This document shows, in pieces, positions 3,504 to 58,948 of a stretch of DNA of 64,000 nucleotides. Source of the stretch: an uncultured virus (IMG/VR IMGVR_UViG_3300029288_000003) (lineage: Duplodnaviria > Heunggongvirae > Uroviricota > Caudoviricetes); IMG/VR virus record IMGVR_UViG_3300029288_000003; one strand, 5' to 3'. The position numbers were made by a program, and so were the translations under genes. How positions within the stretch are numbered: position 1 is the first letter of the stretch; the number at the start of each line of letters is the position of its first letter. The notes under the pieces were generated by a model that did not search any database, was not told the DNA's origin, and saw nothing but the letters and a program-made list of their open reading frames with translations.

Positions 3504-3516
3504 GGAGGCGACAAAT

Positions 3517-23925: not shown

Positions 23926-23998
23926 AGGCCCGTAGCTCAGTGGTTAGAGCAGGGGCCTTATAAGCCCAAGGTCGCAGGTTCGATTCCTGCCGGGCCTA
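23926..23998 (+). tRNA. tRNA-Ile(TAT)
   Basis: AGGCCCG/CGGGCCT, loop CTTATAA, GGTTCGATTCC. Confidence 0.9.
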
Positions 23999-24009
23999 CT
24001 AGGAGATTT

Positions 24010-30533: not shown

Positions 30534-30890
30534 ATGCTAAAGGCAATTAGATTTGACTTGCGATTGAATCTTCTTAAAGTGCATGTTGGTGTGCGCATAC
30601 GTCCGCTTATACGATCATGGAAGTGGTTTCCGTATGGTTTGATCCCTACTTGTTTGTGGTTGGGGCCAATAGAGTTTACAGTTTTTGCAGGGAAATACGC
30701 CAAGTGGCTTGATTTTTCATGCTCGGTGGATTTTGATTTGAAGGAAGAGGGTATTTCATTCCGATTTAATCCATTTTGGTGGGAATTAGGAACAACTTTT
30801 TCATTAGACGGTATGAATGGGTATTTTACTGCCTATCCAAAATGTGGCCCCCTTCATATTTACGCATACAAATGGCTAGAACGTGTATGA
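30534..30890 (+). CDS. hypothetical protein (leaderless)
   Basis: Promoter 30500-30527, ATG 6 nt after -10. Confidence 0.55.
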   Translation: MLKAIRFDLRLNLLKVHVGVRIRPLIRSWKWFPYGLIPTCLWLGPIEFTVFAGKYAKWLDFSCSVDFDLKEEGISFRFNPFWWELGTTFSLDGMNGYFTAYPKCGPLHIYAYKWLERV

Positions 30891-31615
30891 AACCACTTAA
30901 TCAAAAATGCTACGGGAGTATCGGCCACTTGCCCGGTTCACGGGTAGGTAAAACCGATCATTATATCACTGACGGGCAGGCTCGTATTGCAACTGTTAAG
31001 GGACGAGATTGTCACGATGTAGTGATCGTGCAGGAAAAATTAGATGGCGCATGTGTCGGGGTCGCTAAAATAAATAACGAGTTAGTAGCATTGACTCGTG
31101 CTGGTAATTTGTGCGTTCGGTCGCAATTTCCTCATCATCATACTTTTGTGGAATGGATGTATCGCCACTATAATCGTTTTAATGCCCTACTTGATGAAGG
31201 CGAACGAGTTGTTGGAGAATGGTTAGCTCTTGCTCACGGGACATTATATAATAATCAACAGAAAGGTTGGGAACCTTTTGTAGCTTTTGACCTAATGAAA
31301 GGTACTGAACGATTAGTCTATCAGTTATTTAGCAGAAGGGTCAATAAATTTTTTAATACGCCACCGCTTATTTCTGAGGGCCTCCCCCGTACTATTGACT
31401 GGGTTCGAGAAGAGTGTCCTGAAAGTCGATATGGCGGTGAGCATGTTGAGGGCTACATTTGGCGGGTTGAACGAAATCCGTATGCAAAGAATGGTCCGTA
31501 TGTTGACTATCTTTGCAAATGGGTGAATCCTACTTATGTTGCAGGTAAGTATCTTCCAGAAATAAGTAATACTTTACCTGTTTGGAATTATTATGAGGCC
31601 CCGGTACGCGCATGA
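30887..31615 (+). CDS. ATP-dependent RNA ligase family protein
   Basis: QEKLDG adenylation motif, GEW, FVAFD, EGYIWR, K. Confidence 0.75.
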   Translation: MKPLNQKCYGSIGHLPGSRVGKTDHYITDGQARIATVKGRDCHDVVIVQEKLDGACVGVAKINNELVALTRAGNLCVRSQFPHHHTFVEWMYRHYNRFNALLDEGERVVGEWLALAHGTLYNNQQKGWEPFVAFDLMKGTERLVYQLFSRRVNKFFNTPPLISEGLPRTIDWVREECPESRYGGEHVEGYIWRVERNPYAKNGPYVDYLCKWVNPTYVAGKYLPEISNTLPVWNYYEAPVRA

Positions 31616-32233: not shown

Positions 32234-33372
32234 AAATACGAATTGTGGTTTACACGACGTTATTATTTGCCATTATTGGTGGCATTTATATTAACACCTA
32301 TTCCGATGTTTATGAAACATCGCAAGCGATAATCGTGCGAAATGATACTTCGCATGTTGAATCCGGTCCCGGTAAATTTCGGTATCCAGAAGAAATGAAA
32401 AATCATCAGGAAGTCTTAGTCGAATTGGCTAGGAATATGGGCGCAAAAATCAAACCACCTAAAGGTGCAGAATTAGGTAAAACTGAAATCTGTTACCTTG
32501 TTGGCGGATCATTTTATAAATTGCAGAGACAATTTCAAAATCTGCGAGCCGCACAAGCTCGTAGTATGTTGACAGAATTGCGGGACGCTGCTAGTATTGC
32601 TAAAGCCAATTTACTCGATGCCACAACACGATTAACTAAACTTGAAAAGAAACTAGGTGGCGATCTTGCTGAGTTACGCTCTATGCAAGAATGGACAACT
32701 GGTGATAGCGCTCTACGTCGTACTGTCGAGGAACTACGCGCTAAAATAGCTGACATTAGTTGCCAAGAGAAAATTTATCAGAAACTATTGTTAGCTATTG
32801 ATAGTATGCAAGAAGCTACTTTATCTTCAAGACTCTTAGACGCCCACCCACCATTGAAAAGACTCAAGGAAGGATTATCAGAGGCACATTTACGAACGGC
32901 CACACTCTTAGGAACCTACACTGAGAATCATCCTAAAGTAATAGCGGCTGTAGAATCAGAACGAATTGTTCACGAAAAATTAAAGCATGAGTTAATTTTA
33001 GCATACGGAGGTATTAAACTTGAATGTGTCATGTTGTCAGTGACCCATAGATCATTAGACCAGCAACTAGCCACTGTAACCGCTAGATTACAGAATCTTG
33101 CGAGTTTACGGGCTGAATATGTAAACACAATTGCTGAGGTTAAAAATTATAGTAGCTTTTTGGATCAAACTCAACGTAATTTGTTTGAAGCCCAGACCCT
33201 TGTTTATAATGATAGTTTGATTCTTCGAGTAGGGGAGCCAGTAGTGTCAATTAAACAACCCGCCCGACTGGTGGTTTTCTTAACCAGTATTTTGGGTGGT
33301 ATACTCACTGGTATCGGATTAGTTTGTCTTATTTATCCGCCTGATTTGACAAAGTACAAACCTGTGATATAG
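32230..33372 (+). CDS. Wzz/Wzc(GumC)-like polysaccharide chain-length determinant, no kinase domain
   Basis: N- and C-terminal TMs, long coiled coil, YTENHPKV motif, GxxxG C-terminal helix. Confidence 0.7.
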   Translation: MKIRIVVYTTLLFAIIGGIYINTYSDVYETSQAIIVRNDTSHVESGPGKFRYPEEMKNHQEVLVELARNMGAKIKPPKGAELGKTEICYLVGGSFYKLQRQFQNLRAAQARSMLTELRDAASIAKANLLDATTRLTKLEKKLGGDLAELRSMQEWTTGDSALRRTVEELRAKIADISCQEKIYQKLLLAIDSMQEATLSSRLLDAHPPLKRLKEGLSEAHLRTATLLGTYTENHPKVIAAVESERIVHEKLKHELILAYGGIKLECVMLSVTHRSLDQQLATVTARLQNLASLRAEYVNTIAEVKNYSSFLDQTQRNLFEAQTLVYNDSLILRVGEPVVSIKQPARLVVFLTSILGGILTGIGLVCLIYPPDLTKYKPVI

Positions 33373-33381
33373 TTATGGTAT

Positions 33382-33462
33382 GGGCAGGTGGCGAAATGGC
33401 AAACGCTGGGGTCTTAAAAGCCCCTACCTGCGGGTTTGCGGGTTCGAGTCCCGCCCTGCCTA
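33382..33462 (+). tRNA. tRNA-Leu(TAA)
   Basis: GGGCAGG/CCTGCCT, loop CTTAAAA, variable arm; own promoter 33346-33373. Confidence 0.9.
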
Positions 33463-34065
33463 CTTGACAATCTAAAAATTTGAGGTATAATTAAGATATG
33501 AAGTTTGGATACCTGAATAGATTTGGTGATTACTGGTATATGCCCCGGATGGATGGCTTGAGCGTTTTTAATGCTACCACTGGGGACCGAGTAGCTGAAT
33601 GGTATGTCCATGATTCTAGGAATGAATGGAAAACATGGTCCTTTCATTGTTTAGTAAATACCTTGCCACCTGATGTGGCAAGCCGATTCGGGCATGTTGT
33701 CCGCGATTGGGAAAAGTATGTGGATGATCGGCTTGTTGAATGTTTTAATTATTCGCGTCAGGACTAACTATGCGCCCCGCTCGAATTGTCAATTATATCA
33801 CATTTGCCGCTGACCGATGTGAATTTGAACTTGAAGTAAGTTTTTGGTATACTCCTGGCGATGAATGGGATGGGCCAGAGATTGAACTGGGTAGAGTACA
33901 AAGAGTTTTAGCCATTGTAACTCCATCTGGTTTAGTGATCGAGCAGCGGTGGTTAGAACAACGTGGATTTTATGCGTGGGCAAAACAATATGCCGAGAGA
34001 GAACTTGATCGGCGTTTGCAGCCCGATAGCCGAGTTTGGTGGGATTTATTAAGGATAGCAGAAGA

Positions 34066-34212
34066 ATGTTAAGCACATTTCACTGGTTTGTAGTGGCTTT
34101 GGTGGCCTTCTTGCTCTTTGGTAACAGATTGCCGTCAGTGATGAAGTCATTGGGGCAGGGAATCAATGAGTTTAAGAAGGGATTAAACGATCCAGACGAA
34201 CCGAAGCATTGA
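34066..34212 (+). CDS. tatA: twin-arginine translocase TatA/E subunit (48 aa, absent from ORF track)
   Basis: MLSTFHWFVVALVAFLLFGNRLPSVMKSLGQGINEFKKGLNDPDEPKH: TM, FG hinge, amphipathic helix ending EFKKG. Confidence 0.88.
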   Translation: MLSTFHWFVVALVAFLLFGNRLPSVMKSLGQGINEFKKGLNDPDEPKH

Positions 34213-34427: not shown

Positions 34428-34499
34428 GCCGCTGTAGAATAGTGGTTAGTTTACCGGCCCTTCAAGTCGGATACCTGGGTTCGAGTCCCAGCAGCGGTA
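34428..34499 (+). tRNA. tRNA-Glu(TTC) with non-canonical C33
   Basis: GCCGCTG/CAGCGGT, CCGGC-CCTTCAA-GTCGG, GGTTCGAGTCC. Confidence 0.8.
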
Positions 34500-34501
34500 C
34501 T

Positions 34502-34575
34502 GTGACTGTAGCTCAATTGGTTAGAGCGGCAGGTTGTGGTCCTGCATGTTGCGGGTTCGACTCCCGCCAGTCACC
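34502..34575 (+). tRNA. tRNA-His(GTG)
   Basis: GTGACTG/CAGTCAC, GCAGG-TTGTGGT-CCTGC, C discriminator. Confidence 0.92.
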
Positions 34576-34836
34576 TTATGAATAATTATAAACTCGCGGA
34601 AATAATCAGCAGGGGTATTAGAGCAAGAGGCTACAAAAGCAAGTCTCACCGATTACATCAGTTATTCGGTGGTAAATGGATTTATGACTATAGGTGTAGT
34701 TGGTGGTGTGATGATGATAAACGCCATGTTAGCCGATGCTCAGCCGGTGTTGATGAATTTGATAATGAGGTAGGACCGCCAGAGTATTGGTTATATGGTG
34801 ATGGCGAACCGAAACGAGTTTATTTTTAGATTTTAC

Positions 34837-34864
34837 TTGACAAACTGAGTTTTTGAGATATAAT
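34837..34864 (+). promoter_or_regulatory. consensus sigma70 promoter of the Y-RNA/Ro60 unit
   Basis: TTGACA-N16-TATAAT; predicted start near 34871. Confidence 0.85.
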
Positions 34865-34871
34865 TAAGTTA

Positions 34872-34932
34872 TAGGGCCGAAGCGGCTAGGTTATCACTGT
34901 TAATGATTCCGCCTACCGCGTTCCTTGCCCTA
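34872..34932 (+). ncRNA. Y-RNA-like RNA 1
   Basis: GGGC[C]GA/TTGCCC bulged helix, GCGG.TAGG/CCTACCGC stem, TTATC loop; upstream of Ro60. Confidence 0.8.
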
Positions 34933-34942
34933 ACCGTATTTG

Positions 34943-35001
34943 TGGGCCGAAGGTAGTCGGTTATCATTACATGGCGAAACCCGATTACCACACCTTGCCC
35001 A
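34943..35001 (+). ncRNA. Y-RNA-like RNA 2
   Basis: Same fold; stem GGTAGTCGG/CCGATTACC. Confidence 0.8.
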
Positions 35002-35012
35002 TTTTGAACTTA

Positions 35013-35074
35013 GGGGCCGAAGATTATCGGTTATCAATTTGGTTTTGACGCACCCGATAGTCAACCCTTGCCCC
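35013..35074 (+). ncRNA. Y-RNA-like RNA 3
   Basis: Same fold; stem GATTATCGG/CCGATAGTC. Confidence 0.8.
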
Positions 35075-35095: not shown

Positions 35096-36700
35096 ATGCA
35101 CAATTTGGCTAAGCACATTTCCGTTAAGACAACCCCTCAAAGCCGCGCTATCCCTGGTAAGAATCAGGTGCAGAATAATGCTGGCGGCTTTGTTTATTCC
35201 CTCGACTGTTGGAAGCGTTTGCAGAGATTCCTTATTCTAGGGTCAGATGGCGGAACTTATTATGCTACGGAAGCCAAGTTGACGATTGACAATGCTGGTG
35301 TGGTTGCCGAATGTGCAGCCACGGATGCACGGCGAACAGTCGATATGATTGTGGAAATTAGCCAGTCTGGTCGCGCACCGAAGAATGATGCGGCTATTCT
35401 TGCACTGGCTATTCTAGCCGCCAATGATAATGATGCTGTGCGACAATTGGCTTTGTCGGCGGTGTCAAAGGTTTGCCGTATCGGAACCCATATTTTCCAG
35501 TTTACGGCGGCATGTCGTGAATTGCGTGGTTTCGGTCGTGGGTTGCGAGAAGCAATTGCAGGCTGGTATAATGATAAGCCCGTTGCTGACCTTGCTTATC
35601 AGGTTACAAAGTATCGAAATCGTGCAGGATATACGCATAGGGATTTGTTGCGGCTAAGCCACCCCAATCCTGTCAGCGAGCAACGTGATGATTTGTACGG
35701 TTGGATTGTTGGCAAAGGTAAGAACTGGGTTGAAGCCCCTAATGTCGATGATCCTTTGGCTTACACGTATGCACTTGATCGAATCGGCGAATTGGACCCG
35801 GCAAGTTTCAGGGATGCAATCCGACTGATTGAGGACTATAATCTAGCGTTTGAGCATGTACCGACTTGCTTCTTGAATAATGCTAATGTTTGGGATGCCT
35901 TGTTGCCGAATCTCAAGCCGACTTCATTGATCCGAAATCTTGGTAAGATGACTACTGTTGGCTTGTTGAAGCCGTTGTCTAAGTCTACAAGCTATGTCTG
36001 TGAGGTCTTGAACAATGCGGAGCGAATTCGTAAGGCACGGGTACACCCACTTTCTATCTTACTGGCGCTGAATACTTATCAGCAGGGGCATGGGTTACTT
36101 GGCAATCTATCGTGGCGTCCTGTTCCTCAGATTACGTCGGCCTTGGAGTCCGCATTTTATCTGGCCTTTGATGCCGTTGAACCGACGAACAAGCGGCACT
36201 TTTTGGCTGTTGATGTTTCTGGGTCGATGGGTTGGTCATATTTGGCTAATACCCGCTTGTCGGCTCGTGAGGCTTCTGCTTGCATGTCGCTGGTGACTAG
36301 CAAGGTTGAGCCGAATACGTACACGCTTGGATTCTCGGATGAGTTGACTGATTTGGGTATCACGTCTCATTCTAATCTGAATGACGTATTGAATACGATT
36401 AAGAATCTCCGTATGCGTCGTACTGACTGTGCTTTGCCTATGATCTATGCGAAGCAGAATAAGTTGGAGGTTGATGCGTTTATTGTCTACACTGACAATG
36501 AGACATGGTTTGGGAGTATTCATCCCAGTCAGGCGCTTGACCAGTATCGTCAGGCCAGCGGTATTGATGCGAAGTTGATTGTAGCTGGTATGACGGCCAC
36601 AGGCTTCACTATTGCTGACCCCAATGATACAGGCATGTTGGATGTTGTCGGTTTTGATGCCGCTTGCCCGGCTATTATGGCGAATTTTGTGAGGTCTTGA
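35096..36700 (+). CDS. rsr: Ro60/Rsr TROVE-domain RNA-binding protein
   Basis: QVQNNAGGFV, RFLILGSDGGTYY, KYRNRAGYTHRDLLRLSHP, IRNLGKMT, VHPL, DVSGSM MIDAS, TDCALPM, TDNETW, MLDVVGFD. Confidence 0.95.
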   Translation: MHNLAKHISVKTTPQSRAIPGKNQVQNNAGGFVYSLDCWKRLQRFLILGSDGGTYYATEAKLTIDNAGVVAECAATDARRTVDMIVEISQSGRAPKNDAAILALAILAANDNDAVRQLALSAVSKVCRIGTHIFQFTAACRELRGFGRGLREAIAGWYNDKPVADLAYQVTKYRNRAGYTHRDLLRLSHPNPVSEQRDDLYGWIVGKGKNWVEAPNVDDPLAYTYALDRIGELDPASFRDAIRLIEDYNLAFEHVPTCFLNNANVWDALLPNLKPTSLIRNLGKMTTVGLLKPLSKSTSYVCEVLNNAERIRKARVHPLSILLALNTYQQGHGLLGNLSWRPVPQITSALESAFYLAFDAVEPTNKRHFLAVDVSGSMGWSYLANTRLSAREASACMSLVTSKVEPNTYTLGFSDELTDLGITSHSNLNDVLNTIKNLRMRRTDCALPMIYAKQNKLEVDAFIVYTDNETWFGSIHPSQALDQYRQASGIDAKLIVAGMTATGFTIADPNDTGMLDVVGFDAACPAIMANFVRS

Positions 36701-37536
36701 TGGAACGTCAGTGTAGAAATTGTGAGTATTATCTATCATGGGCTAATGAATGCCGTAGACATTCACCACAAACACACGAAGCGAGTGTTAAAATTAAACC
36801 TGGATTTATGAGTGGGCCAGTTGATTTGGGTACACGATTGGTTCATACGACAGTGTTTCCAAAAGTACAGGCAGCGGATTGGTGTGGAGAATTTACACTA
36901 GCAAAAGAATTCGTAAAATGATTGGTGAAAAAGCAGCATTGATAGTGCAGGCTGAGGAGCATGTTTTACAGGCTCGACGCGAACTTTATATTGCAATGAA
37001 TCGGCTACGATCTTTGGAAAATATGGTTACACCCAATGTTGCGCGTATGCTGGAAACTCTACGTATAGGTGTACAAGCCAAAATCAACGATTTGGAAATT
37101 GAGAAGTTTCAAACACGTTTACGTGTATTATGCGATGCTGGACCATAGGGTCTGTCCACGGGAAGCAGGAACAGGTGTGCCGTGGCCTCAATCACGAAGG
37201 GCCAAAATGTCATAAGACAGGCGTGTGGTGAAGGGGATTCCTGCCAGCATTATTATAGATTATGACTAGACATTGTATAAATCTTGCGTATGATGACCAG
37301 AGGCCATTTTGTATTGTTCATGCCTTAGAAGGGCATGGTTGTTGCTGCGGATACACTGGTGATGATTGCCATGTTGTTACTCTAAATGGTAAGCGTCGAA
37401 TTCAGTGCGGAGGCGAGAAGTTAGGTATCCCCACGTTAGTAGGGGTATGTCAAGACTTTGAGCCGGAGCCGTGGTTAAAAATGCATTTAGGTGTTGAGCC
37501 ACTTGACTATTCGATTTAATAAGCTATACTAGAGGT

Positions 37537-46939: not shown

Positions 46940-48220
46940 ATGCCGAGTTGTTGGGAATGTGGTGGCGATTTTGCTTTGTCCGAGTTGACGCAACGCGGGC
47001 AAGCCCATTTTTGTCAACAATGCTACGCCACTTTATATTGCCGCTGTTCGGTATGTGGCCGGGAAGTTGAACATGATGAGGCAATTTTTAGTGCCACCGA
47101 CCACCGGCCATACTGTCAGGCTTGCTATCAAGAGCGGTTAGTACACTGCCATAATTGCGGGCGCGAAACAAACAGAAACACTCGGCACACAATCGAGGAC
47201 CATAGCTATTGTAGCTCATGCTTTGATCGGTTGTATACGCATTGTGCTAACTGCGATACCATTTTGCATCGGCATGATACGTGGTCCACCCCCGGTAACG
47301 ATAGATACTGTCAACGCTGTTTTGACGAAAATTGCAGCGTATGTAGCCGTTGCGGTGAAACATTTTGGAATTGCGATATGCGCCGTACCGACCACGGCGT
47401 ATTTTGTGATGAATGTTATCGTGAAAATGATGAGTGGTCGGCGGGCGAATTCATTATTTCCGATCCGCATTATGATGTAATCGGATCGAAACGCCGCTAT
47501 GGTGTCGAACTTGAAACTTCACGATGCAATGATTATCGGTCACTGCATGGCAATACAATATGGGAATGTAAAACAGATTGCTCGATTGAGGGGCGCGAGT
47601 TTGTTTCCCCAATTCTGTGCGGGGATGAGGGGTTAATGGAAATCACTGCATTTTGTACCATTGCTCGCCGAAAGCGTTGGCAAGTCAATAGATACTGTGG
47701 TTATCATGCCCATTTCGATGTGGCCGATGAAAGCTGGGAAGCCTTGCGAAGTATCGCGTATGCGTACCGCAAAACGTATGACTTATGGTGTTGTCTAGTG
47801 TCAGAACAACGGGCAAACAACCCTTATGCTGGGTCGCCGGATTATATGCCAGAGGATGTACGGGCTATTCGCAATGCTTCCGATTGGGATTATTTTGTCG
47901 GTGCGCGTGACCGATTCGAGTTTGTCAACTGGCGGGCTTATCTGGTACACGGAAGTTTTGAGGTTCGATCCCATGATGCTACTCTTGACGCGAATGTCAT
48001 TTGTAACTGGATTAAACTTCATGCTCGCTTTATGGATCGTGTTAAGACAATGACTCTTGACGAAATTGACGACCAATTTAGTGGTAACATAGCATCACAA
48101 TTTGCAGCTTTGAGCGAATTTGTGGGTGAAGAATTATCTTTGGAATACGCTGTTATTGCCGAAGAATTTGGGCATACCCTCATACCGAGGGAGATTGTGG
48201 CCCTTGCCCCGCCGTTTTAA
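46940..48220 (+). CDS. amidoligase (COOH-NH2 ligase, Amidoligase_2-like) with N-terminal CxxC repeats, paralog 1
   Basis: GVELET, DCSI.G.EFVSPIL, CGYHAH, R..FVN, FEVR.H. Confidence 0.75.
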   Translation: MPSCWECGGDFALSELTQRGQAHFCQQCYATLYCRCSVCGREVEHDEAIFSATDHRPYCQACYQERLVHCHNCGRETNRNTRHTIEDHSYCSSCFDRLYTHCANCDTILHRHDTWSTPGNDRYCQRCFDENCSVCSRCGETFWNCDMRRTDHGVFCDECYRENDEWSAGEFIISDPHYDVIGSKRRYGVELETSRCNDYRSLHGNTIWECKTDCSIEGREFVSPILCGDEGLMEITAFCTIARRKRWQVNRYCGYHAHFDVADESWEALRSIAYAYRKTYDLWCCLVSEQRANNPYAGSPDYMPEDVRAIRNASDWDYFVGARDRFEFVNWRAYLVHGSFEVRSHDATLDANVICNWIKLHARFMDRVKTMTLDEIDDQFSGNIASQFAALSEFVGEELSLEYAVIAEEFGHTLIPREIVALAPPF

Positions 48221-48350
48221 TTTTGACTTGACTTTTCCACGACCTGTGGTATAGTTAATAGAGTGAGGGGCGATAAAAAGCCGTCGCCTAGCAAAACTCA
48301 CTAGGCTGTAGTAGCCCAACTGTCAGGCTTGTGAGAGTGAGGTATTTTGC

Positions 48351-49265
48351 ATGTGTGGTTTGTTTGGTGCGATTGGTTTGGGTTGGAATGAGGGCGTCAT
48401 TAGGGCGCTGACGTGGGCGAACCAAGAGAGGGGTACAGATTCTCTTGGTTTCTTCGATTCGTCCGGCAAGATGATTAAGTGTGCTGAAACCCCCAGTGAT
48501 GCGCTGTGTAAGGATAACATTTCGCGCTGGCTTGATGCGTCTTGCCGTGGGTCTGAAAAGCTGGGTCGGGCCGCGAGTTGGTTTATTGCCGGGCATACTC
48601 GGCTTGCCACCCGTGGTAAGGTGAACCGTCAGAATTCGCACCCGTTCCGATACGGTCGAATTATCGGTTCCCACAATGGAATGATCGACGCCCCCAAGGG
48701 GTATGTGGTCGATTCGCAGCATTTGTTCGATGCGTTGCACAAGGCCAAGGGTGACTATAATTCGGCATGGGCCGATATTACGGGTTACTGGGCGGTAACG
48801 TGGTTTGACGATAATGCTTTCTATCTGCAAGTCCATAATGGCGACTTGACGGTGGCCCGTAAGGGAGAGGTATGGTACTACTCCTCGGCATGGTCTCACC
48901 TGGAAAGCTGCATCGGCACTGCCGATGAGGTTATCACGCTGAAAGAGGGCGAAACCCTGCGGTTTACTCTTGAAAATGGCGTGATTGTCAAGTCCGATGC
49001 TCCTAAGTTTGTGTCGGCTGCCCCGGATTACTGGGTTAAGAAATACGGTTGCAGCAATACCAACGATTGGGAGGATGAATACTACGGGTCGGGCCGTTCC
49101 TTCCGTCGTCACGGTAGCCGTGGCAAGGGTTCATGGTACGATCACCATGATTACACAAGCACGACTACCCCAACAAGCACGGGCACTGTCAAGGATTATG
49201 ATGCCGATTGGCGGGAAGCATGGGAAGCCTACTCTACGGAGAGTGAACACGCCAAGGTTGACTAA
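48351..49265 (+). CDS. class II (Ntn) glutamine amidotransferase
   Basis: MCGLFG N-terminal Cys, RG.DS.G, GHTRLAT.G, NSHPF, HNG, DS. Confidence 0.9.
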   Translation: MCGLFGAIGLGWNEGVIRALTWANQERGTDSLGFFDSSGKMIKCAETPSDALCKDNISRWLDASCRGSEKLGRAASWFIAGHTRLATRGKVNRQNSHPFRYGRIIGSHNGMIDAPKGYVVDSQHLFDALHKAKGDYNSAWADITGYWAVTWFDDNAFYLQVHNGDLTVARKGEVWYYSSAWSHLESCIGTADEVITLKEGETLRFTLENGVIVKSDAPKFVSAAPDYWVKKYGCSNTNDWEDEYYGSGRSFRRHGSRGKGSWYDHHDYTSTTTPTSTGTVKDYDADWREAWEAYSTESEHAKVD

Positions 49266-49375
49266 TGGTTGTCGGTTTCTACGGGCGGTAACATAAAAAC
49301 TTGCCGCCCATTTTTATTTGACTTCCCCTTTTTTTGATGATATAGTTAAGTTGTTCACTTAACCATGAGGTACTA

Positions 49376-50431
49376 ATGCCAGCATCAAGTTTACCCTTAC
49401 CCGATCTAGCGGATACCCCCACACAGTCACGATACCAATGTCGGTTATGTGGCCGTCGATTCACGGAGAATCCGTGCCGTGGCCCAGAGAATATGTGTCT
49501 GTGCCAAAATTGCTACGACCGTGAATGTTTCGTTTGCACTGTTTGCGGACGAATCGAATTTAGCAACGGTCGCCGACAACTGGCGCTAGAACCCAATGGC
49601 CCGCCCGTCGCTATTTGCCGCAACTGTGAGCATGAATATCGAACGTGGAATCATGCGGAATTTGTAGTTGAAGATGCAAGCTACAAAAAGATTCGCAGTA
49701 CCCGCAAGTTTGGTATCGAGTTGGAAACATCGGATTGCCCCAATTATCGCAGTCTAAAAGGGGCAACGCCTTTTGGCGCGAAAGTTGATTGCTCGATTCA
49801 TGGTATGGAATTCACTTCTCCGATTTTGTATGGCGATGAGGGTCTTGCCGCTGTTGAAGAATTTTGCAATCACGCTGATCGTCTCGATTTTGACGTGGAT
49901 AGCGATTGCGGGTATCACCTGCATATTGATATGCGGGGTGAATCGGTTGACGCCTTGAAGTCGGTTGCGTATGCGTACACGAAAGCAGACTCGGTATGGC
50001 GTTTGCTTGTCGATTCATTCCGAGCGAATGATTGCGGTTACTGCCGCCGCCCGGAATTTGGTCGGAGTGAAATTTCGCGGGTATCGGATGAGTACAGCAT
50101 GGAGAGATTTTGCGACCGGCAGAATCGCTACACTCTATGCAATCTTAATGCCTACACTAAGTTTGGCAGTTATGAGATTAGGTTGCATCAGGGAAGTTTA
50201 GATGCCCGTGTCATTTGCAACTGGATTAAGGCCCATTTGCGGTTTGTCGATTGGGCGAAAGATAAGACATTCGACGAAATTGACGACGCCTTTCGTGGAT
50301 CGGATTTAGCCCGCTGGGAATCACTGAAAGCCATTTTTGGCGATATTGACCTTAACCGCTACTATGGCCGTGTACGTCGTGGCCGGTTGAACGAAAGCAC
50401 CGAACGTGAACGGGCCGAAGTTGCTGTATAG
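49376..50431 (+). CDS. amidoligase paralog 2
   Basis: FGIELET, DCSIHGMEFTSPIL, CGYHLH, RY..N, YEIRLH. Confidence 0.75.
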   Translation: MPASSLPLPDLADTPTQSRYQCRLCGRRFTENPCRGPENMCLCQNCYDRECFVCTVCGRIEFSNGRRQLALEPNGPPVAICRNCEHEYRTWNHAEFVVEDASYKKIRSTRKFGIELETSDCPNYRSLKGATPFGAKVDCSIHGMEFTSPILYGDEGLAAVEEFCNHADRLDFDVDSDCGYHLHIDMRGESVDALKSVAYAYTKADSVWRLLVDSFRANDCGYCRRPEFGRSEISRVSDEYSMERFCDRQNRYTLCNLNAYTKFGSYEIRLHQGSLDARVICNWIKAHLRFVDWAKDKTFDEIDDAFRGSDLARWESLKAIFGDIDLNRYYGRVRRGRLNESTERERAEVAV

Positions 50432-50469
50432 CGATAGGCCCTGTTTTACAACCCCTCACTCATAGGGGA

Positions 50470-50500
50470 GAACCCGACCTAATAAGTCGGGTTTCTTTTT
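50470..50500 (+). terminator. intrinsic terminator
   Basis: GAACCCGAC-CTAATAA-GTCGGGTTT + T run. Confidence 0.75.
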
Positions 50501-51023
50501 AATCGGTTGGTCCATTTGTCGGGGTCATATTTCCAGACGTGCGCTTCTATGACCCCGATCATTGGAATCTTTAGAAAATTACCACCTATACTTGACAAGC
50601 TAAAAGACTATGATATAGTTTTAATATGTCACTCAAAAATGGTGGTTTTAAGTTGAGACACATGCGTTGGCTGCCTAAGCCACATTGGATCGGAGTCAAT
50701 ATGTCGCCTCTGGGCGAGTTAGCGTTTTGTATCTTCTGGGGTATCATCGGCCTTATCTGTTTATGGATAGCTCATTCGTAAAGACATGGGTTTTTCAACT
50801 GATGGCTACGGGTTGTGACTATCTTACTGGTAGTCATAATCGCACCGTGTATAGCATAACAGTTTTTGCTACCCGTGAATTGGCCGAGAGCCGAATCGAA
50901 AGTTTCAAGTCTGCCTGTCTAAATCGACTATTGGAAGCCCCTATTAAAGTGGTAGTTATGCCACTAGAAGTGATTAGCGAATAATTCACTTGACTTTCTC
51001 GAAAAAGATGATAGGGTAGTAGT

Positions 51024-51416
51024 ATGACACACCTGACTGAATTACCGCCGATCAAACTACCACAACTTGTATCAGCACCGTTCTTTATGCTGGTACAAGA
51101 GGGTGAGATTCTGGATTGTTGCCAAAATCCAAACGCCCTTATGTGGTCCCTCTTGAATGACGATACTGATTTTTCGGTGGCCGTGGGTGTAATCAATGAG
51201 GATGGCAAGCGGGAAATCGTTGGTACTTGCGCTGAGTTTAAGACTAGGCCCAACAGCACTATTGCCTATCTTACATCGGATATGGACGGCTACCGTCGGC
51301 TGGTAAGCAAAGGTGACGCCGCCGACTGCATCCGTAATCGAGTCTGTACGTTGTATGGAAAAGGCCATTTGTCCGATCCATGCAATTTTTCCAAGGTCGA
51401 AATGATTGAGGGTTAA
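51024..51416 (+). CDS. hypothetical protein (leaderless)
   Basis: Promoter 50990-51017, ATG 6 nt downstream. Confidence 0.6.
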   Translation: MTHLTELPPIKLPQLVSAPFFMLVQEGEILDCCQNPNALMWSLLNDDTDFSVAVGVINEDGKREIVGTCAEFKTRPNSTIAYLTSDMDGYRRLVSKGDAADCIRNRVCTLYGKGHLSDPCNFSKVEMIEG

Positions 51417-51419
51417 TCC

Positions 51420-52355
51420 ATGCCACGTTGTCACACCTGTAATGCTCTAGTCCCAACCGATCAAATGCACCGTACTCCCTACGGGGAGAATGTTTGCTGG
51501 CAATGTTTTGATCGAGACTTCATACATTGCAATGAATGTGGTCGCCCGGCATGGCGCGGCGATTGTCCTAACGATGACTTGTGCTATGAATGTTGGGACC
51601 GGGTACGATTTTGGAATTCGGAGGAAGTGAGCCACCTTACCACGATTAAAAAGACTGGCAGTGGCCGTTGTTTTGGTATCGAGTTGGAAACTTCGCAGTG
51701 TGACAACTACCCCAAAATGCGGGGTGAAACCTGTTTTGGGGTGAAAGAGGATGGATCGGTTGACGGCATGGAATTTTACTCCCCGATTTTGTGCGGAGAT
51801 AAGGGCCTTGCAGAAATCCGAAAATTTTGCCGGTTGGCAAAGCGGCATGACTTCGAGGTTGATGATACTTGCGGGTATCACCTGCATCTTGATATGCGGG
51901 ATACTACCATTGTTCAACGCAAACGAATCGCGTATGCGTATCGCCTGACATTTAGCTTGTGGCAGCATTTGGTACGGGAGGACCGATGGCACAATACGTT
52001 TTGCGAAGGCCCTAATTACAGCCCGCAAGAGCTACGGGATACCCATAATTTTACTACGTTCGAGCGCCGGCAATGCCGCTATCAGTTTGTCAACCTGCGG
52101 GCATTTTGTGACCATAGCACGTATGAACTGCGTGGCTTTCAGGGGACACTTGACTACCGCGAAATTTGCAACTGGATTAAAGCCCATTTGCGTTTTGTCG
52201 AATTCGTAAAAGACACGCCGATGGCTGAACTTGATGCCATGTTTGGGCAGGGATTACGTAAAGCCAAACGGAGTTTGCGTAAGGTACTTGGCACTTCACT
52301 AAGCAACTACTATGCAAAACTCTGGCGTAAACATGCCCATAGGGTGGCCGTATGA
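51420..52355 (+). CDS. amidoligase paralog 3
   Basis: FGIELET, DGSVDGMEFYSPIL, CGYHLH, RYQFVN, YELR. Confidence 0.75.
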   Translation: MPRCHTCNALVPTDQMHRTPYGENVCWQCFDRDFIHCNECGRPAWRGDCPNDDLCYECWDRVRFWNSEEVSHLTTIKKTGSGRCFGIELETSQCDNYPKMRGETCFGVKEDGSVDGMEFYSPILCGDKGLAEIRKFCRLAKRHDFEVDDTCGYHLHLDMRDTTIVQRKRIAYAYRLTFSLWQHLVREDRWHNTFCEGPNYSPQELRDTHNFTTFERRQCRYQFVNLRAFCDHSTYELRGFQGTLDYREICNWIKAHLRFVEFVKDTPMAELDAMFGQGLRKAKRSLRKVLGTSLSNYYAKLWRKHAHRVAV

Positions 52356-52636
52356 ACTTGAACCCGTTACGCTATCAGTTAATGACCCAGGTTGAAAGCC
52401 TGATTCGTGGGACTGAAACCCTATTAGCCGATCCTCAGATTCAGAGCCGGATACTGGTTGCTGTTGTAGCGCGTGACTGTCTCATACGCCAATTATTTTG
52501 GGGTGAGCAATTACTGGCGACATTGCGGGATGAGGGAAACTATTATCATGCCCGCGATGAGTTTAACATTGCAAGCCGGGCGAGTGAGAAAGCCCTAAAC
52601 ATACTCCATGATTTTCATAACCCAAGGTGTTCATAA
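52352..52636 (+). CDS. hypothetical protein, paralog of 61253-61531
   Basis: ARDCLIRQLFWGEQLL. Confidence 0.6.
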   Translation: MNLNPLRYQLMTQVESLIRGTETLLADPQIQSRILVAVVARDCLIRQLFWGEQLLATLRDEGNYYHARDEFNIASRASEKALNILHDFHNPRCS

Positions 52637-54139
52637 TGTTTTCAGTTAGACAAAAACGCGAAATCGCCGACGCCGTGCAACGTATTCTAAGGGATACTAA
52701 CCACCCCGAATTGCCCGCCGGTGAGATTCAATTCAAGCTGCATGTTGATGGTGCCCGACCAGGAAGTAGTTGGGCGGATATACAGAATAACGGGGCTGTA
52801 CCGAATCCAACGGTTAATCCGCATAATGAGCGGCAGGATTCACTTGACAAACCAACAAAATAAGGTAGAATAGATTATATGAAATACGCCATTCGATTAA
52901 GTCACCTACCGCCCGTCGTTATCTACGCCACCCTCAAGCGCTCGGCTGAGGATGTTGTAGCGGCCTTGTGTGAGGAAGCTACCGAAGCGAAGCAATGCGG
53001 CATGGGTATTTGTGGTTATGTCAACAAGGTTCTACGCTGGTTGTCTGACGATCTTCTGTGCGAATCGTGCCAACTGGTTGAAGATGATACCCGACTTGTC
53101 TTTACCGATACGCGGGATGCTGATTATCTTATCACTAAGACGGATAAGGGCTTTGACGTGGTGCGCCTAACCGATTCGTATGATCGGGAGCTATTGGGCC
53201 GATAAGCATGATATTCAACGAATGGTGGACGCGATACGGTAGTGCTTGTGTTGGCATGGAAACTATGCAAGAGGTAGCCCGCCTAGCTTATGAGGAGGGG
53301 GTTAAGGCTGGGTATGATACCGGATATGATGAGGGTTATTCTAACGGCTATGATACCGGCAGCAATGACGAAAGAGAGGTTCATTTCGGATGACATTCGA
53401 TCAGTGGTGGGAAGAAAATAAAGAGGATTGCACATACTCCGAACTGCCAACCGACGTGATAAAGTTGATTGCGATGGCTGCGTATGATGCCGGGTGGGAG
53501 GAAGGGTGGGACAAAGGCTGTATTGTCCCGTCAATACAATGAGATACGCAATACAAACCCCCATTGCTGTTTTCTGTTGCCGATTGTTTTTGCCAAAACA
53601 ATTAGTGATAGACCGATTGCATACACGTAATACGTCATGCGCGGGGGTCTACACTAGAACACGTTGGATACACGAAAAGTTACTTGCGATGAATCCATCG
53701 TTGGCTATCTTGGACCATTTCAACCAGGATGATGATAGACTTCCTAGCAATCAAACCCCGGAAGAATGGTGCGAAGTACGAATCTTTGCCTATGATTTAG
53801 GATTCTGAAAATGAAGTATGCCGTAATTATGAGGGACGTGATTTTCTGTTGTGAATTGCACGATACCCCTACCGATGTTCTTAACGCCTTGAATGAATGG
53901 GATAACCATGATCTTGGCCCCTTTCAGCGTAAGAGTCTAGCCCGCGATTGCTTGGAAGATTTGGAATTGAACCAGTGGCATAGCGGCGATGTTCATGTTA
54001 TCGAGGATAGCTTGCCGCTGATGGACAACCAGCCGGTCAACCATTGGGCGAATCATGTAATCTTGTGGGATGCCACTAGCGGCTTTTATTTTGAGCGCTG
54101 TTTATCGGGCGATTGCGGCAACTGTAACTGTGGTGGGAA

Positions 54140-54712
54140 ATGCTAACCAGTTTGCAATTTACTGAGAAGTGGCGTTGCTTTGCAGAGGGCGATACTATTA
54201 AGTTTCGCCCCGGCGTTAATCTACTGGTTGGCGATCAAGGCAGTGGTAAGAGTAGCGTACTACAGGCTATTGCAGCTAGTGCTAAGGCAAAGAAATACAC
54301 GTATCAAGTTGACCTTGGCAAAAAGGTCAAGGTGGTGGCTGATAAGATGCCTGCGGGCGGCTTTGATTTTGAGAAGGATAACCGCCGTACACGTCCCTAC
54401 TTTGACCATGATAATTTTCAAGCACACATAGCAATGATGTGGTCAAGCCACGGGCAATCAAACCTTGCAATCTTGCGTAGTATGGCAAAGATGCAAGGTA
54501 CTTTGATATTCCTTGATGAGCCGGATATGGCCCTTAGCATACGGTCGGTCTACAAATTGATCGACCTGTTAAATGCGGCTGCTATTCGTAAATGTCAAAT
54601 TGTTGCCGCCGTTCATAACCCGATTTTAATTCAGGCATACCCCGAAGTTTACTCATTAGAAAAACGAAAGTGGGTATACAGTGACGAATTCATTTTGAGT
54701 CAAACACCATGA
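54140..54712 (+). CDS. stand-alone ABC/SMC-type ATPase
   Basis: GDQGSGKS Walker A, SHGQ signature, FLDEPD Walker B, H-loop. Confidence 0.85.
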   Translation: MLTSLQFTEKWRCFAEGDTIKFRPGVNLLVGDQGSGKSSVLQAIAASAKAKKYTYQVDLGKKVKVVADKMPAGGFDFEKDNRRTRPYFDHDNFQAHIAMMWSSHGQSNLAILRSMAKMQGTLIFLDEPDMALSIRSVYKLIDLLNAAAIRKCQIVAAVHNPILIQAYPEVYSLEKRKWVYSDEFILSQTP

Positions 54713-56542
54713 TTCAGTGGTACGTTATAGTACGAAAAGATAATGGCTATCCGCTACAAATTTATGCGGATAAGGAACTAGCAGAACAGATTGCCCGTGC
54801 GAATGGCGAGAAAGTTGTACCCGTAACCCCGGTGACAAAATGACTTGGTATGAAGCGATTAGCGAGTTGTGCTTGCAAGTTGATAGTGAAGAAACTATCA
54901 AAGATATTCTAGCGACGGCGGTTGATGAGTGTATGATTACGTCGCATGATGCCGATAGCATTGCTAAAATGGTTCATGTAGTGAGGCCAGTATGAAAAAC
55001 GAACAATTTGAGGAATGGTGGGCGACAATGGAACCCGGTTTTCGGGACGTGCAACCCGTGCTGATGTTGGCTTTCAAGGAAATTGCCGAGAAGGCATGGG
55101 ATAATGGTTTCGATTGTGGATGGGATGCTTGTGGCGATACACTTTACTGGGGAACCGATGGATAAGGAATTCGAGAAGTGGTGGGCTGCGGTCGAGCAAT
55201 CGGCCCCGTGGATGCGCCTGCGCGGCTTGGACTATGCAATCAAGGCGATTGCATGGTCAGCGTGGAAAGCTAGTCGAGGTCTAATATGATTTATGCTTTG
55301 GTAAGCGGCGGCAAGTTTCTACACGGCCTCTATACTGATCCTCGAAAAGCTGCGGCATTGATTGCCCGGCAAGATAAGTATGGCGATTGGGATGCCATTA
55401 CCGCTTTGCTGGCGGCTGGGGAAGCGTATGCTTGTTGGACACTGATACCCTTGTCGCTTGACTGTGAATTCAAGGGGGACATACGGCTATGAAAGTACAA
55501 TTTTTCTGTGATAGCGGGGCTAACATTCATTCCTGCCATAAGTCTGGTATCTTGGATACTGTCAAAGATTTGGGGCTTGATGATGGTGAGTGGGAAGCAC
55601 TCTCGGATAATGAAAAGTATAAGTTAGCTGAGGAATGGGCTAACAACTACCTGGAAATCTACTTCGAGGAATCCTAATGCACATCATCGGATTCGTACCG
55701 CCTGAATGGCTTGATGCCATTGTCGAGTCAATGAACGCGGAATTTCCAGGGTGGTGTTTTTCAGGTGTAGACTTGGATACCATTGTAGCTGAGTATTTGC
55801 CCCATGATGCAATCATGCCCTTGATTGAAGCCTACCTTGACGGTGTAAATGATGCGTGGGAACTATGATGGAATATAAACACTGGCGAATTATGATCGGG
55901 CAACGCAAGGATGGTTGGTATTACCTTGTGGAGATATTGCCCAACAAAACATTCAAGGCCACTTATGGCCCGTTTGCCGGGCCAGAAAGTGCGGAGTATG
56001 ACGCTAAGCAAGTGATTGATGTACTCGAAAAATACTTGGAGTGGTAGCGCTTTAAGACGTGCCGGATTCATGGCCGGAAGGGTGCAAGTCCCAATAAGGT
56101 CTAGTAGACCAACCGGGTGCAAGGCCCGGCTATCATTCTAAAGCCCGCTATACCGGATGGCCGGTCACTGGCGGGTTTCCTTTTACCCAGGGGGTCTAAT
56201 TGTCGGGGTCGATTTTTGTTGAAAATAAACCCCAGAAATTTTAAGGCCCTATACGGCAGATTATCGGGGTCATATTCGATGTCCAATTCGGACGTACAAT
56301 TATCGGGGTCATGGATTAACTTATATTTTAGTTATATTTCTTGGACCCCGCTATTCCGAATTATCCGACGCTCTAACCCAGAAATTAAAAAGGTTAATTG
56401 CTGATAAACTGTGACCCCGATAGTCGCCTGTATGTTGCTGGCGTCACTAAGGGTTTATCCGATTCTAGCCGCACGGCAAGAATCCCTCACAGATTTTTAC
56501 CGCTGGCCTTGACTTTGTTGCAAAACGTGGTATAGTTAAGAT

Positions 56543-56823
56543 GTTGAGGGAAATTGTGCTACCGAAAACTTATAGGAGATACAGCCAACCGACTTTCAAT
56601 TCCGTAACCGCTTAAAAGCTACTGCCCGCCTTGATACTGTAAGTATCTCTATGTCGGGATTCCCGGTACTCGCGGTAGAATAGCCGTATCATCGGCACTA
56701 TAAGTCTTGGCAACGCAACCTCTTGCGGTAATCCTTGTTTCGGCCTCAATGCTTGTAGCTGGTTGTTGTTCCTCCCTTGCACACGGGCGGGTAGGTGTGT
56801 GGCCTATCCCGCCCATTCTTTTT
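56543..56823 (+). ncRNA. candidate structured ncRNA
   Basis: Promoter 56509-56536; no ORF over about 25 aa seen; nested stems; terminator GGGCGGG...CCCGCCC + T run. Confidence 0.5.
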
Positions 56824-56938
56824 GTCCGATTAAGTCGATTGTCGGGGTCATGGATAACATAAAAATTTTTATGTTGCGCTTTTTTCGGCTCGCTAACCCC
56901 AGGTAAAATAAGAACTTACGACTTTTTGGATTCCAGCT

Positions 56939-56968
56939 TGGTGGAAATTTGAGGGTCGCAATGTAGGG
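56939..56968. repeat. 30-bp element, copy B
   Basis: 29/30 identical to 40698-40727. Confidence 0.9.
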
Positions 56969-57232
56969 GAAACCGGCACCCCTTGACCGTTATAATTGAT
57001 ATAATCGGCCAAGTAGCGGTACAATCGTTAAGATCGTTAAAACCGTTAGAACCGATAAGATTATTATAAACGATCTAATCGGAAACCCCACTGGGATCGG
57101 CACAAGAGTTGTGACCGATACAACCGGCAGAATTGCAACGTATTGACGTTGCAATCGGTAGAATCGCTACAATCGGTAGCATTTGACGGTCTAACCGTCA
57201 AAATCGCACCATTCGCTATCCTAACACTATCT

Positions 57233-57260
57233 ATTATACCACGCCGTTGTGGTTTGTCAA
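57233..57260 (-). promoter_or_regulatory. minus-strand consensus sigma70 promoter facing a palindrome-rich region
   Basis: reverse complement TTGACA-N16-TATAAT. Confidence 0.75.
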
Positions 57261-57538
57261 CTACAATCCAGATAAACGGCCTTTTCTGGTTGGCGGGGTG
57301 ATGCCAAGATTGTCGATTGTCGGGGTCATGGCATTTTACGCGCCTGCGCGTAATATAGTATAATGTCAAAATCTGCGCCGGAATAATTGTAAAATGTGAT
57401 AGATCGAAAAAATCTGTTGCAATCTGAAAAAATCTTTGCAGGTTTCCGAACTATCGGCCAATTTTGCTTGACACCCGCCGACGGCATGGTAAGATACAAT
57501 GTAAGTCTGATTTTCCCTATCTAACGGAGGGCTAGGCA

Positions 57539-58948
57539 ATGGCGATAGCTACGTCGAAAATCGAATTACCCAACCATACACAATGCCCGGATTGTCGGCA
57601 ATGGTATGAGGGGGAAGGGGCAACGGCATACGGCAATGGTGACACCCGTACAGTATGCCCTAATTGTGCGGAATTGGCGGGATATGTTGCTTGTGACGAT
57701 TGCGGCAAGCTATTCCCCGAATTGCACGATTGCGACGGGGATAACTATTGCGACGATTGCGCCGATTCGCACGGGTTTAAGCAATGTTCGCAATGTGACG
57801 AATGGATGGATTCTGACGATCTGGAAGAATATGACGATGAGTTGTATTGCCGGGAATGTGCCGATGCCGCCGATCTATACCATTGTGACGATTGCGGCAA
57901 GCTATTCCACACTGACGATTTAACCGATTGCGACGGTAACTACTATTGCGACCGTTGCAAGGATAACAATGGGTATACGGAATGTTACCATTGCCATGAT
58001 ACTATCCATCGGGACCATTGTAGCACGGGTGCCGATGATGAGGATTATTGCGAATCGTGCTGGTGTGACCATTTTTCGGTTTGTGAGGATTGTGGCACAA
58101 CTATCTGGACTGACGATTGTGTCTATACTAGGGATGCTTGCTATTGTAGCGATTGTGCCCCTGGTGCCGAGAATTACGAACCGAAGCGTTTTGACGGTTC
58201 TAACAATACTTTCACAAAAATCGGTCAGCGCGCCTTTGGCGTAGAAATCGAGACTGACGAATGTGATGGTTATGAGGATTACGACGGTCGGGGCGCCTTT
58301 GGCGCAAAACCCGATGCTTCCGTAAATGGCAAAGAGTTTTATTCTGACATTCTTTCCGGGGATAAGGGTCTTGCGGAAATTGAGCAGTTTTGCCGTTTTG
58401 CGGATCGTAACGGTTTTGCCGTTGATTCCAGTTGTGGGCTTCATGCCCATTTTGACATGCGGAACGAAAATAACGATAGCATGAAGTCTATCGCTTGTGC
58501 CATGCTTTCCACTTATGAGGTTTGGAAGGCTTTTGTCGATGAGGCAAGACACGACAATCATTACTGTCATGCTAGTTGTGCCAGTTTGGGCGAAGTTTAC
58601 GGCGTTACCGATTTTAGGGATTGGGGCGGTCGTAGGCGTCGTTACGAATGGCTCAATTTTGTGGCCTATTACGAACATAGGAGTATTGAGGTTCGGTTGC
58701 ATCATGGCAGTCTTAACGCCACTGAGATATGTAACTGGATTAGGGGTATTTCCTTGTGGATGGATTGGGCCGCAAGTAAGGGTTGGAAGGAAGTAAGGGA
58801 TTCTCTGATTTACAAGAGTTATGCCGAAAGATTCGCCCTTATGTGCAAGGTTTGGGAAAATGCCGGTTGTGCCGATCTTGTCGATTGGTTCAAGGAACGG
58901 GTTGAAGCATCGGAAATCGAATGGGCCGAATTAGCCGAAGTAGCCTAA
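57539..58948 (+). CDS. amidoligase paralog 4 with long acidic CxxC repeat array
   Basis: Many CDDC-type pairs; FGVEIET, DASVNGKEFYS, CGLHAH, RYEWLN, IEVRLH; promoter 57468-57495. Confidence 0.75.
   Translation: MAIATSKIELPNHTQCPDCRQWYEGEGATAYGNGDTRTVCPNCAELAGYVACDDCGKLFPELHDCDGDNYCDDCADSHGFKQCSQCDEWMDSDDLEEYDDELYCRECADAADLYHCDDCGKLFHTDDLTDCDGNYYCDRCKDNNGYTECYHCHDTIHRDHCSTGADDEDYCESCWCDHFSVCEDCGTTIWTDDCVYTRDACYCSDCAPGAENYEPKRFDGSNNTFTKIGQRAFGVEIETDECDGYEDYDGRGAFGAKPDASVNGKEFYSDILSGDKGLAEIEQFCRFADRNGFAVDSSCGLHAHFDMRNENNDSMKSIACAMLSTYEVWKAFVDEARHDNHYCHASCASLGEVYGVTDFRDWGGRRRRYEWLNFVAYYEHRSIEVRLHHGSLNATEICNWIRGISLWMDWAASKGWKEVRDSLIYKSYAERFALMCKVWENAGCADLVDWFKERVEASEIEWAELAEVA

Follow-up and report, generated by a model that had tools for sequence, protein, structure and literature searches.

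Anticodon stem-loop-like hairpins on short Y RNAs encoded next to a Ro60 gene in a probable phage genome

The stretch of DNA analysed here (64,000 nt, 'the window') is part of a single contig of 105,376 bases. Its gene content, which includes DNA polymerase, primase, helicase, PhoH, nucleotidyltransferase and two RNA ligases together with eight tRNA genes and a tmRNA, indicates that the contig is probably a large phage. No capsid or terminase genes were found among the 31 and 40 proteins scanned; the contig is therefore probably partial, and its phage nature is something we infer. Within the window, a sigma-70-type promoter is followed by three short Y RNA units with a spacing of 70 nt and then by a Ro60 gene on the same strand, whose start lies about 20 nt behind the end of unit 3. 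The features are as follows.

30776..31615, plus strand: RNA ligase (PF09414), given as context only
34837..34864, plus strand: sigma-70-type promoter, TTGACA-16-TATAAT, 12 of 12 consensus positions
34872..34932, plus strand: short Y RNA unit 1, with Ro-binding lower stem GGGCCGAAG / CCTTGCCC, upper stem, TTATC motif and inner hairpin (z -4.3)
34893..34907, plus strand: anticodon stem-loop mimic of unit 1, Asn(GUU), read as C32 U33 GUU A37 A38 (loop 34897-34903, anticodon 34899-34901)
34943..35001, plus strand: short Y RNA unit 2, with weak Rfam matches below the gathering score
34964..34974, plus strand: weak Val(UAC)-like loop of unit 2, read as A32 U33 UAC A37 U38 (loop 34966-34972), closed by C-G and U.G only
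35013..35074, plus strand: short Y RNA unit 3, with a T run after it
35034..35048, plus strand: Pro(UGG)-like stem-loop of unit 3, read as U32 U33 UGG U37 U38, with no purine at 37 (loop 35038-35044)
35096..36700, plus strand: Ro60 / Rsr (TROVE), 534 aa (NCBIfam Rsr, E 1.5e-151; Pfam PF05731)

The NCBIfam Rsr score of the Ro60 protein is 505 bits, below the equivalog cut-off of 900. Transcription from the promoter at 34837..34864 would start just before unit 1. Four promoter-like repeats of the TTGACA...TATAAT type occur in the window (33343-33381, 33461-33499, 34834-34872 and 37264-37302), one of which would drive the array. Contigs from four sequencing runs, with patchy cover, showed no other letter in the array.

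The genome holds several further genes of interest. A second RNA ligase, an exonuclease and a nucleotidyltransferase lie near one another outside the window (L481:5893-9487) and possibly form an RNA end-repair module. A tRNA-Ile with anticodon TAT, which is unusual for bacteria, directly follows the tRNA-Asn (window 23926-23999). At 34428-34575, 300 nt upstream of the array, a tRNA-Glu (loop of CTTCAAG-type register, called TTC) and a tRNA-His (loop TTGTGGT) have loops that look non-canonical; such loops have been reported for phage tRNAs that evade nucleases. Four amidoligase-2 genes (PF12224) and a gene with a glutamine amidotransferase domain are clustered after the tmRNA (46940-58948), and the probable phage also carries a TatA-like gene (34036-34212) and a BCS1-like AAA ATPase gene (3481-4770).

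All three units are predicted to form a long stem in which GGGCCGAAG pairs with CCTTGCCC, and the Y RNA motif GNCGAAN(0-1)G lies within a stem closed by the 5' and 3' ends. The tRNA elbow of YrlA (T arm, D arm and acceptor-like stem) was not found, no unit has a T loop or an Rfam YrlA match, and neither ARAGORN nor Rfam called a tRNA cloverleaf with acceptor stem in the array. Judged by these features, the units are of the Y RNA kind, and neither YrlA (by the tRNA-elbow test) nor tRNA. The Rfam Y_RNA model, built on longer RNAs, scores units 2 and 3 at 23.8 and 17 bits against a gathering score of 38, with no listed match for unit 1; the matches of unit 2 to Y_RNA (E 0.016) and to the nematode family ceN72-3_ceN74-2 (E 0.0008) are both under the gathering score.

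An earlier note on this DNA had likened the loops of the units to tRNA anticodon stem-loops, citing the strings ATCA-CTGTTAA-TGAT, TC-ATTACAT-GG and TCAA-TTTGGTT-TTGA in units 1, 2 and 3. The strings are where the note placed them, and the likeness holds for unit 1, which is canonical; unit 3 lacks the purine at 37, and unit 2 is weak. A 7-nt loop with U33 sits on a firm stem of four pairs in units 1 and 3, with predicted inner-stem pair probabilities of 0.87-0.99 and 0.93-0.98, and on a marginal one in unit 2, where C31-G39 reaches only 0.47. A purine at 37 (G after G36) is found in units 1 and 2 and family-wide, but not in unit 3 (U37). In 20000 shuffles of each unit's own loop region, as good a stem with the same signature arose in a share of 0.002 for unit 1 (Y32-U33-R37), 0.056 for unit 2 (U33-R37) and 0.035 for unit 3 (U33 only). 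Taken singly, chance is excluded only for unit 1, and units 2 and 3 are borderline. The loop of unit 1 is, as the note had remarked, that of the genome's own tRNA-Asn, but this identity says little, because CTGTTAA is the loop of 16 of the 21 Asn(GTT) tRNAs among the 559 tRNAs in the fetched loci. The loops ATTACAT (unit 2) and TTTGGTT (unit 3) are absent from these 559, and no Val or Pro tRNA was called in the genome at the default threshold. Reading unit 3 as a slipped Gln(UUG)-G37 loop leaves just one closing pair; that register was rejected and the Pro register kept. From their sequences, units 2 and 3 are imperfect mimics.

Homologous loci were fetched from viral, metagenome and genome collections, giving 452 loci with the window included, 303 of them with Ro60 in 183 clusters at 70% identity. 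A search of viral contigs with a single protein had yielded no relative among four candidate stretches and was rerun with an alignment. Units were sought by a motif of the 5' stem plus GTTAY, which returned 632 matches, or 480 after removal of duplicates: 194 long units with a T loop, 156 short units with a checked stem (two of them the window's) and 130 others. In an earlier, smaller set, 589 motif matches lay on the Ro60 strand outside the gene and 37 on the opposite strand. Tests on short homologs used 154 units, leaving out the window's own. The search patterns contained no loop content, except in searches for twins of units 2 and 3, whose matches stayed outside these counts. Viral contigs gave no twin of unit 2 and 13 matches to unit 3; one lies beside Ro60 (on the same contig as locus L065), another (L453) is followed by a T arm with no Ro60 in its flank, and the other 11 resemble coding DNA. 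With one locus counted per cluster, arrays of at least three units, all short, were seen at 4 of 90 viral loci and at none of the 38 metagenome and 34 genome loci.

The bias towards 7-nt YU-NNN-R loops that one would expect from the earlier note's reading is present in the short homologs. Choosing the best-paired 7-nt hairpin and ignoring its loop letters, we found such a hairpin in 107 of 154 units; 60 of the 107 combine U33 with R37 (1000 shuffles: mean 11.0, maximum 20), and 53 have Y32 as well (5.5, maximum 14). With one unit per Ro60 cluster the count is 31.8/57, compared with 5.9/44 after shuffling, and by source it is 31/60 for viral, 17/22 for genome and 12/25 for metagenome loci. Seven is also the best-scoring loop size (776, against at most 656 for the other sizes within 3-11). 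The reverse test, in which the loop is picked by its letters and pairing is ignored, finds both closing pairs in 49 of 94 units (null 5.1, maximum 13), with C-G, A-T, T-A and G-C types all represented; among the 129 excluded 'other' units from outside the window it gives 22/71 compared with 5.6. Family-wide, the loop signal is far beyond chance. Nevertheless, a 7-nt hairpin is missing from 47 of the 154 short units, and a further 47, among the 107 with a hairpin, are without U33 or R37, so that 94 of 154 (about 6 in 10) fail as full mimics. There is no single fixed loop register in the short units either (9-28 matches per start over six starts).

The loops resemble those of tRNAs in some respects and depart from them in others. 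G37 and G36 agree in 51 of 60 short units (null 37.9, maximum 49) and 65 of 70 long units (null 47.0, maximum 57); in real tRNAs, 53 of 85 G37 loops have G36. Exact 7-mer identity with real loops does not exceed anticodon permutation (short 31 vs 29.9; long 44 vs 38.7, maximum 47), which means that positions 32 and 38 do not follow the isoacceptor. Almost every amino acid is represented among the anticodons, and they do not concentrate on a small number of nuclease targets. Repeats of an anticodon within a locus (0 in 29 loci) were expected only 0.8 times, which makes their absence uninformative. Loops with A36-A37 make up 21/60 in short units against 101/547 in real tRNAs (p 0.006, post hoc), and 6 of 60 short units have stop-reading anticodons. 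The short units of L302, L326 and L378 carry the loop CTTCAAA with a UGA-reading anticodon, which we take to resemble the loop of tRNA-Sec; across the short units, TCA is the anticodon in 5 of the 69 picked loops that have U33.

The long, YrlA-type units provide a second view of the same arm. We tested the 103 of 194 units in which the T loop lies 26-31 nt after TTAY, omitting the remaining 91, which are shorter, lack most of the arm, or are longer. With positions numbered backwards from the T arm, as for a tRNA, U33 is present in 86 and R37 in 96 of 103, both together in 81 (null 14.3, maximum 29), and a stem of at least three pairs in 69 (null 9.9); among the 78 units with a stem, 70 bear the signature. 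A D arm with a matching acceptor stem could be located in 94 long units, 51 of them circularly permuted and 43 in tRNA order. With D arms placed by a stem-based finder plus an acceptor check, pairs 27-43 and 28-42 are both formed in 44 of the 70 stemmed units among the 94, some rows still being slipped (null 15.9, maximum 27). Under a simple D-arm pattern, which suffers register slip, these pairs were near the null (17 and 12 of 36; 22 and 7 of 37). Because the tRNA register is kept and the five-pair anticodon stem is completed, the arm published as 'variable' is, in these long units, the anticodon arm, with the Ro-binding stem inserted in the 5' strand of the anticodon stem, mostly near 28/29. 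The long units are not ordinary decoders, since CCA follows in only 9/70 and N73 is most often C (29/70). We also considered the Ro stem as a spliceable intron that would yield a working tRNA, and rejected this given the 9/70 CCA count, discriminator bases unrelated to the anticodon, and the bodiless short units.

Some variation among long units deserves mention. Anticodons with A34-U35 are found in 8 of the 70 long units, compared with 3 of the 559 real tRNAs; ATT, ATC and ATG, found in long units of L294, L290, L306, L299, L232 and L231, are A34 versions of GUN (queuosine-family) anticodons. What seems to remain in a second long class, with the T loop 23-25 nt after TTAY (L279, L261, L282, L244, L317, L178, L023, L169 and L069), is only the anticodon, positions 37-38 and the 3' half; the Ro stem there seems to be inserted where the anticodon loop would begin on its 5' side, which gives the look of a pre-cut tRNA. 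Some relatives have no anticodon-like arm at all. The short form probably derives from the long YrlA form through loss of the tRNA body.

These results bear on how the arm has been described. Chen et al. 2014 named the YrlA hairpin 'V' and modelled it as a variable arm (PMC4201824). The alignment shown there has the 'V' loops ATTGAAA (ET08), CTTCTAA (M. smegmatis, Streptosporangium) and CTCATAA (Gordonia), which read as anticodon loops would be Ser, Arg, Arg and Met, with none in Salmonella. Wang et al. (bioRxiv 10.1101/312249) describe YrlA as having no anticodon loop and compare its long V with a variable arm of class II. On the sequences compared here, this is true for the crystallised Salmonella YrlA and untrue for most long units tested. 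In the literature covered, to which subscription journals do not belong, no title or abstract opening describes anticodon loops on Y RNAs.

Comparison between relatives indicates that the loops are both retained and switched. For unit 1, 17-18 nt from TTATC are common to L018 and L101, whose Ro60 proteins are 40% and 46% identical; for unit 3, the same 18 nt recur in L065 (Ro60 59% identical), the odd U37 included. Further relatives of unit 3 have G37 (L261) or A37 (L224). The upper stems beside the retained loops share just 2-3 of 7 bases, and the loops of units 1 and 3 are, by this comparison, better kept than the adjoining scaffold. In 18 pairs of scaffold-matched units, changes peak at position 35 (10, against 2 at position 38), and five pairs are unchanged. 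Anticodon switches between such units include GAU/GUU, AUU/GAU, UUC/UAU, CAU/AUU and UCG-G37/UCU-A37, the last of which (L276 vs L283) retains the 36-37 rule.

Natural variation is also found in Bxz1-like phages, where 179 of 207 records are at least 99% identical to Catera over YrlA. In an alignment of Catera with eight phages picked for differing (nine phages, four genomes being one haplotype), 15 of 431 columns vary; the only three-state column is YrlA position 36 (UGC/UGU/UGA), and the short unit has two states at position 34 (GUC/AUC). As a sign of selection this pattern is suggestive only, and its naive p of 0.016 overstates the case because of the way the phages were picked and because of linkage. 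Between two Y RNA units of Bxz1-like phages (L465:1170-1185 and L475, alignment column 106) lies a further word, CTTATAA / CTCATAA, which is like an Ile/Met anticodon loop with a polymorphic wobble place.

At the level of sequence, the family thus presents an anticodon stem-loop mounted on a Ro-binding stem; the loop persists where the remainder of the tRNA has gone, and it is diverse and able to switch. We consider it plausible, if still short of an even bet, that the window RNAs are baits or competitive inhibitors of anticodon nucleases, a reading that fits the context. The one strong early-type promoter would give a transcript of three short Y RNAs and Ro60; Ro60, as in its family, would bind the lower stem of each RNA and stabilise it, leaving the far end to display a putative tRNA anticodon stem-loop. 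With acceptor stem, D arm and T arm all missing, these RNAs can neither be charged nor take part in decoding. Their loops might compete with real tRNAs for a host anticodon nuclease, such that translation survives infection. Canonical loops would serve as sacrificial substrates, and altered ones (U37, A32, the A34 of relatives) may be inhibitors that are cut poorly. Each unit of an array could answer nucleases of another specificity, and point mutations would adjust the anticodon to new hosts.

If the array makes an abundant anticodon loop that is uncharged and stabilised by protein, within a system linked to tRNA damage, anticodon nucleases are the first candidate; we count in favour, besides the loop patterns described above, the two RNA ligase genes of this genome, which are context for the array. 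Against it count the imperfect units of the window (two of three), the 94 of 154 short units that are not full mimics, the 91 of 194 long units outside the tested spacing, the missing match at 32/38 and the lack of anticodon focus. Many tRNases also need the tRNA body, which the short units do not have. On the supporting side, Hughes et al. report that in Salmonella the rsr-yrlBA-rtcBA operon is induced upon anticodon-loop cleavage. The nuclease there acts on tRNAs for Trp, Tyr, Cys and Phe and cleaves them behind position 36, where two adenines adjoin; it leaves YrlA uncut, which was suggested as a possible competitive inhibitor of the nuclease (PMC7790460). A further point against is that, Salmonella YrlA being uncut and without such a loop, the best-studied system works without an anticodon loop.

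Alternatively, the loop could recruit a tRNA-modifying enzyme, a synthetase, an RNA repair enzyme or the ribosome decoding site to Ro60, which we regard as unlikely. The 36-37 coupling observed in short and long units is a requirement of modification enzymes and the ribosome, and would suit such a partner. Other Y RNAs link Ro60 to effectors such as PNPase (PMC4201824; bioRxiv 10.1101/312249), and for phage phiLo it is reported that its Ro60 with the two short RNAs Yrl1/Yrl2 binds and damps host PNPase (PMC12135203). However, a fixed partner would favour a fixed loop, and the amino-acid identity of the anticodon switches between orthologues; the A34-U35 and stop-reading forms fit poorly as well, and RtcB lies within 3 kb of Ro60 in just 12 of 301 loci, none of them viral.

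Quite improbable in our view is that the loop acts as a tripwire, its cleavage leading to decay of the Y RNA and freeing Ro60 to handle nicked tRNAs with ligases or PNPase. Canonical loops, that of unit 1 among them, ought to be cut well, this genome has ligase genes, and bound Y RNA inhibits the rRNA-maturation activity of Rsr in Deinococcus (PMC4201824), yet the non-canonical loops (the U37 of unit 3, kept in L065, and the A34 forms) would be poor sensors, and Salmonella senses tRNA damage through RtcR, not YrlA (PMC7790460). We give equally little credence to the loop being a decaying leftover beside the TTATC motif of Y RNAs that came from tRNAs, with only the Ro-binding stem mattering. 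Such decay would agree with a signature weaker in short (60/107) than in long units with a stem (70/78), with the deviating units 2 and 3 and with relatives that lack the arm; it is at odds with loops identical over 17-18 nt at 40-59% Ro60 identity next to stems that have diverged, with the 36-37 rule surviving an anticodon switch, and with several pair types at the closing positions. Finally, the earlier note's alternative, in which the loops guide Ro60 by base pairing to RNAs of host or phage, would match a constant scaffold with a variable single-stranded part in a tandem array, and is very improbable, as the longest complements in the own genome, the only one searched, are 9-12 nt, like shuffles (mean about 10), and a guide needs neither U33, R37 nor a 7-nt loop.

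Extending the bait or inhibitor reading, we tentatively propose, with somewhat less confidence than for the window itself, that phage and bacterial Ro60-Y RNA particles may be a reprogrammable panel of anticodon-loop baits, a counter-defence against tRNA-cutting immunity that is retuned by single anticodon changes, and whose specificity loop would have been mislabelled a variable arm since YrlA was described. By the account in PMC7790460, the function of these particles has been studied only in Deinococcus. Should the majority carry a genuine anticodon arm, the crystallised Salmonella YrlA becomes an exception, their origin from a tRNA by insertion can be traced in the sequence, and the search for the missing partner should turn to factors that read anticodon loops. 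In M. smegmatis, a laboratory system, the single-base anticodon differences that occur naturally between its Bxz1-like phages make a direct test possible. The published structural reading of the 'V' arm is corrected here; the idea of YrlA as a competitive inhibitor is already in PMC7790460.

Among known systems, the YrlA RNAs of bacteria and mycobacteriophages share with the window units the Ro-binding motif GNCGAAN(0-1)G, a YUAY motif after the upper stem and a Ro60 neighbour on the same strand, whereas T arm, D arm and acceptor stem belong to YrlA and are all absent from the window. Closer in size are the short hairpin Y RNAs YrlB (Salmonella, M. smegmatis), Yrn2 (Deinococcus) and Yrl1/Yrl2 (Thermus phage phiLo), which likewise have a long stem with the Ro-binding site, stand in tandem upstream of Ro60 and are processed from one precursor; in the accessible text of these reports a small pyrimidine-rich loop is described and anticodon mimicry is not, while the window array is all short with a different loop in each unit (PMC4201824, PMC12135203). 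The nearest parallel for the proposed role is tRNA-Lys of phage T5, an anticodon-arm RNA set by a phage against a host tRNase: as described in PMC11464382, the PARIS nuclease AriB recognises the anticodon stem-loop, and T5 escapes with a non-cleavable tRNA. T5 tRNA-Lys is a working tRNA that replaces the cut host tRNA, whereas the window RNAs, being unchargeable, would compete for the nuclease instead.
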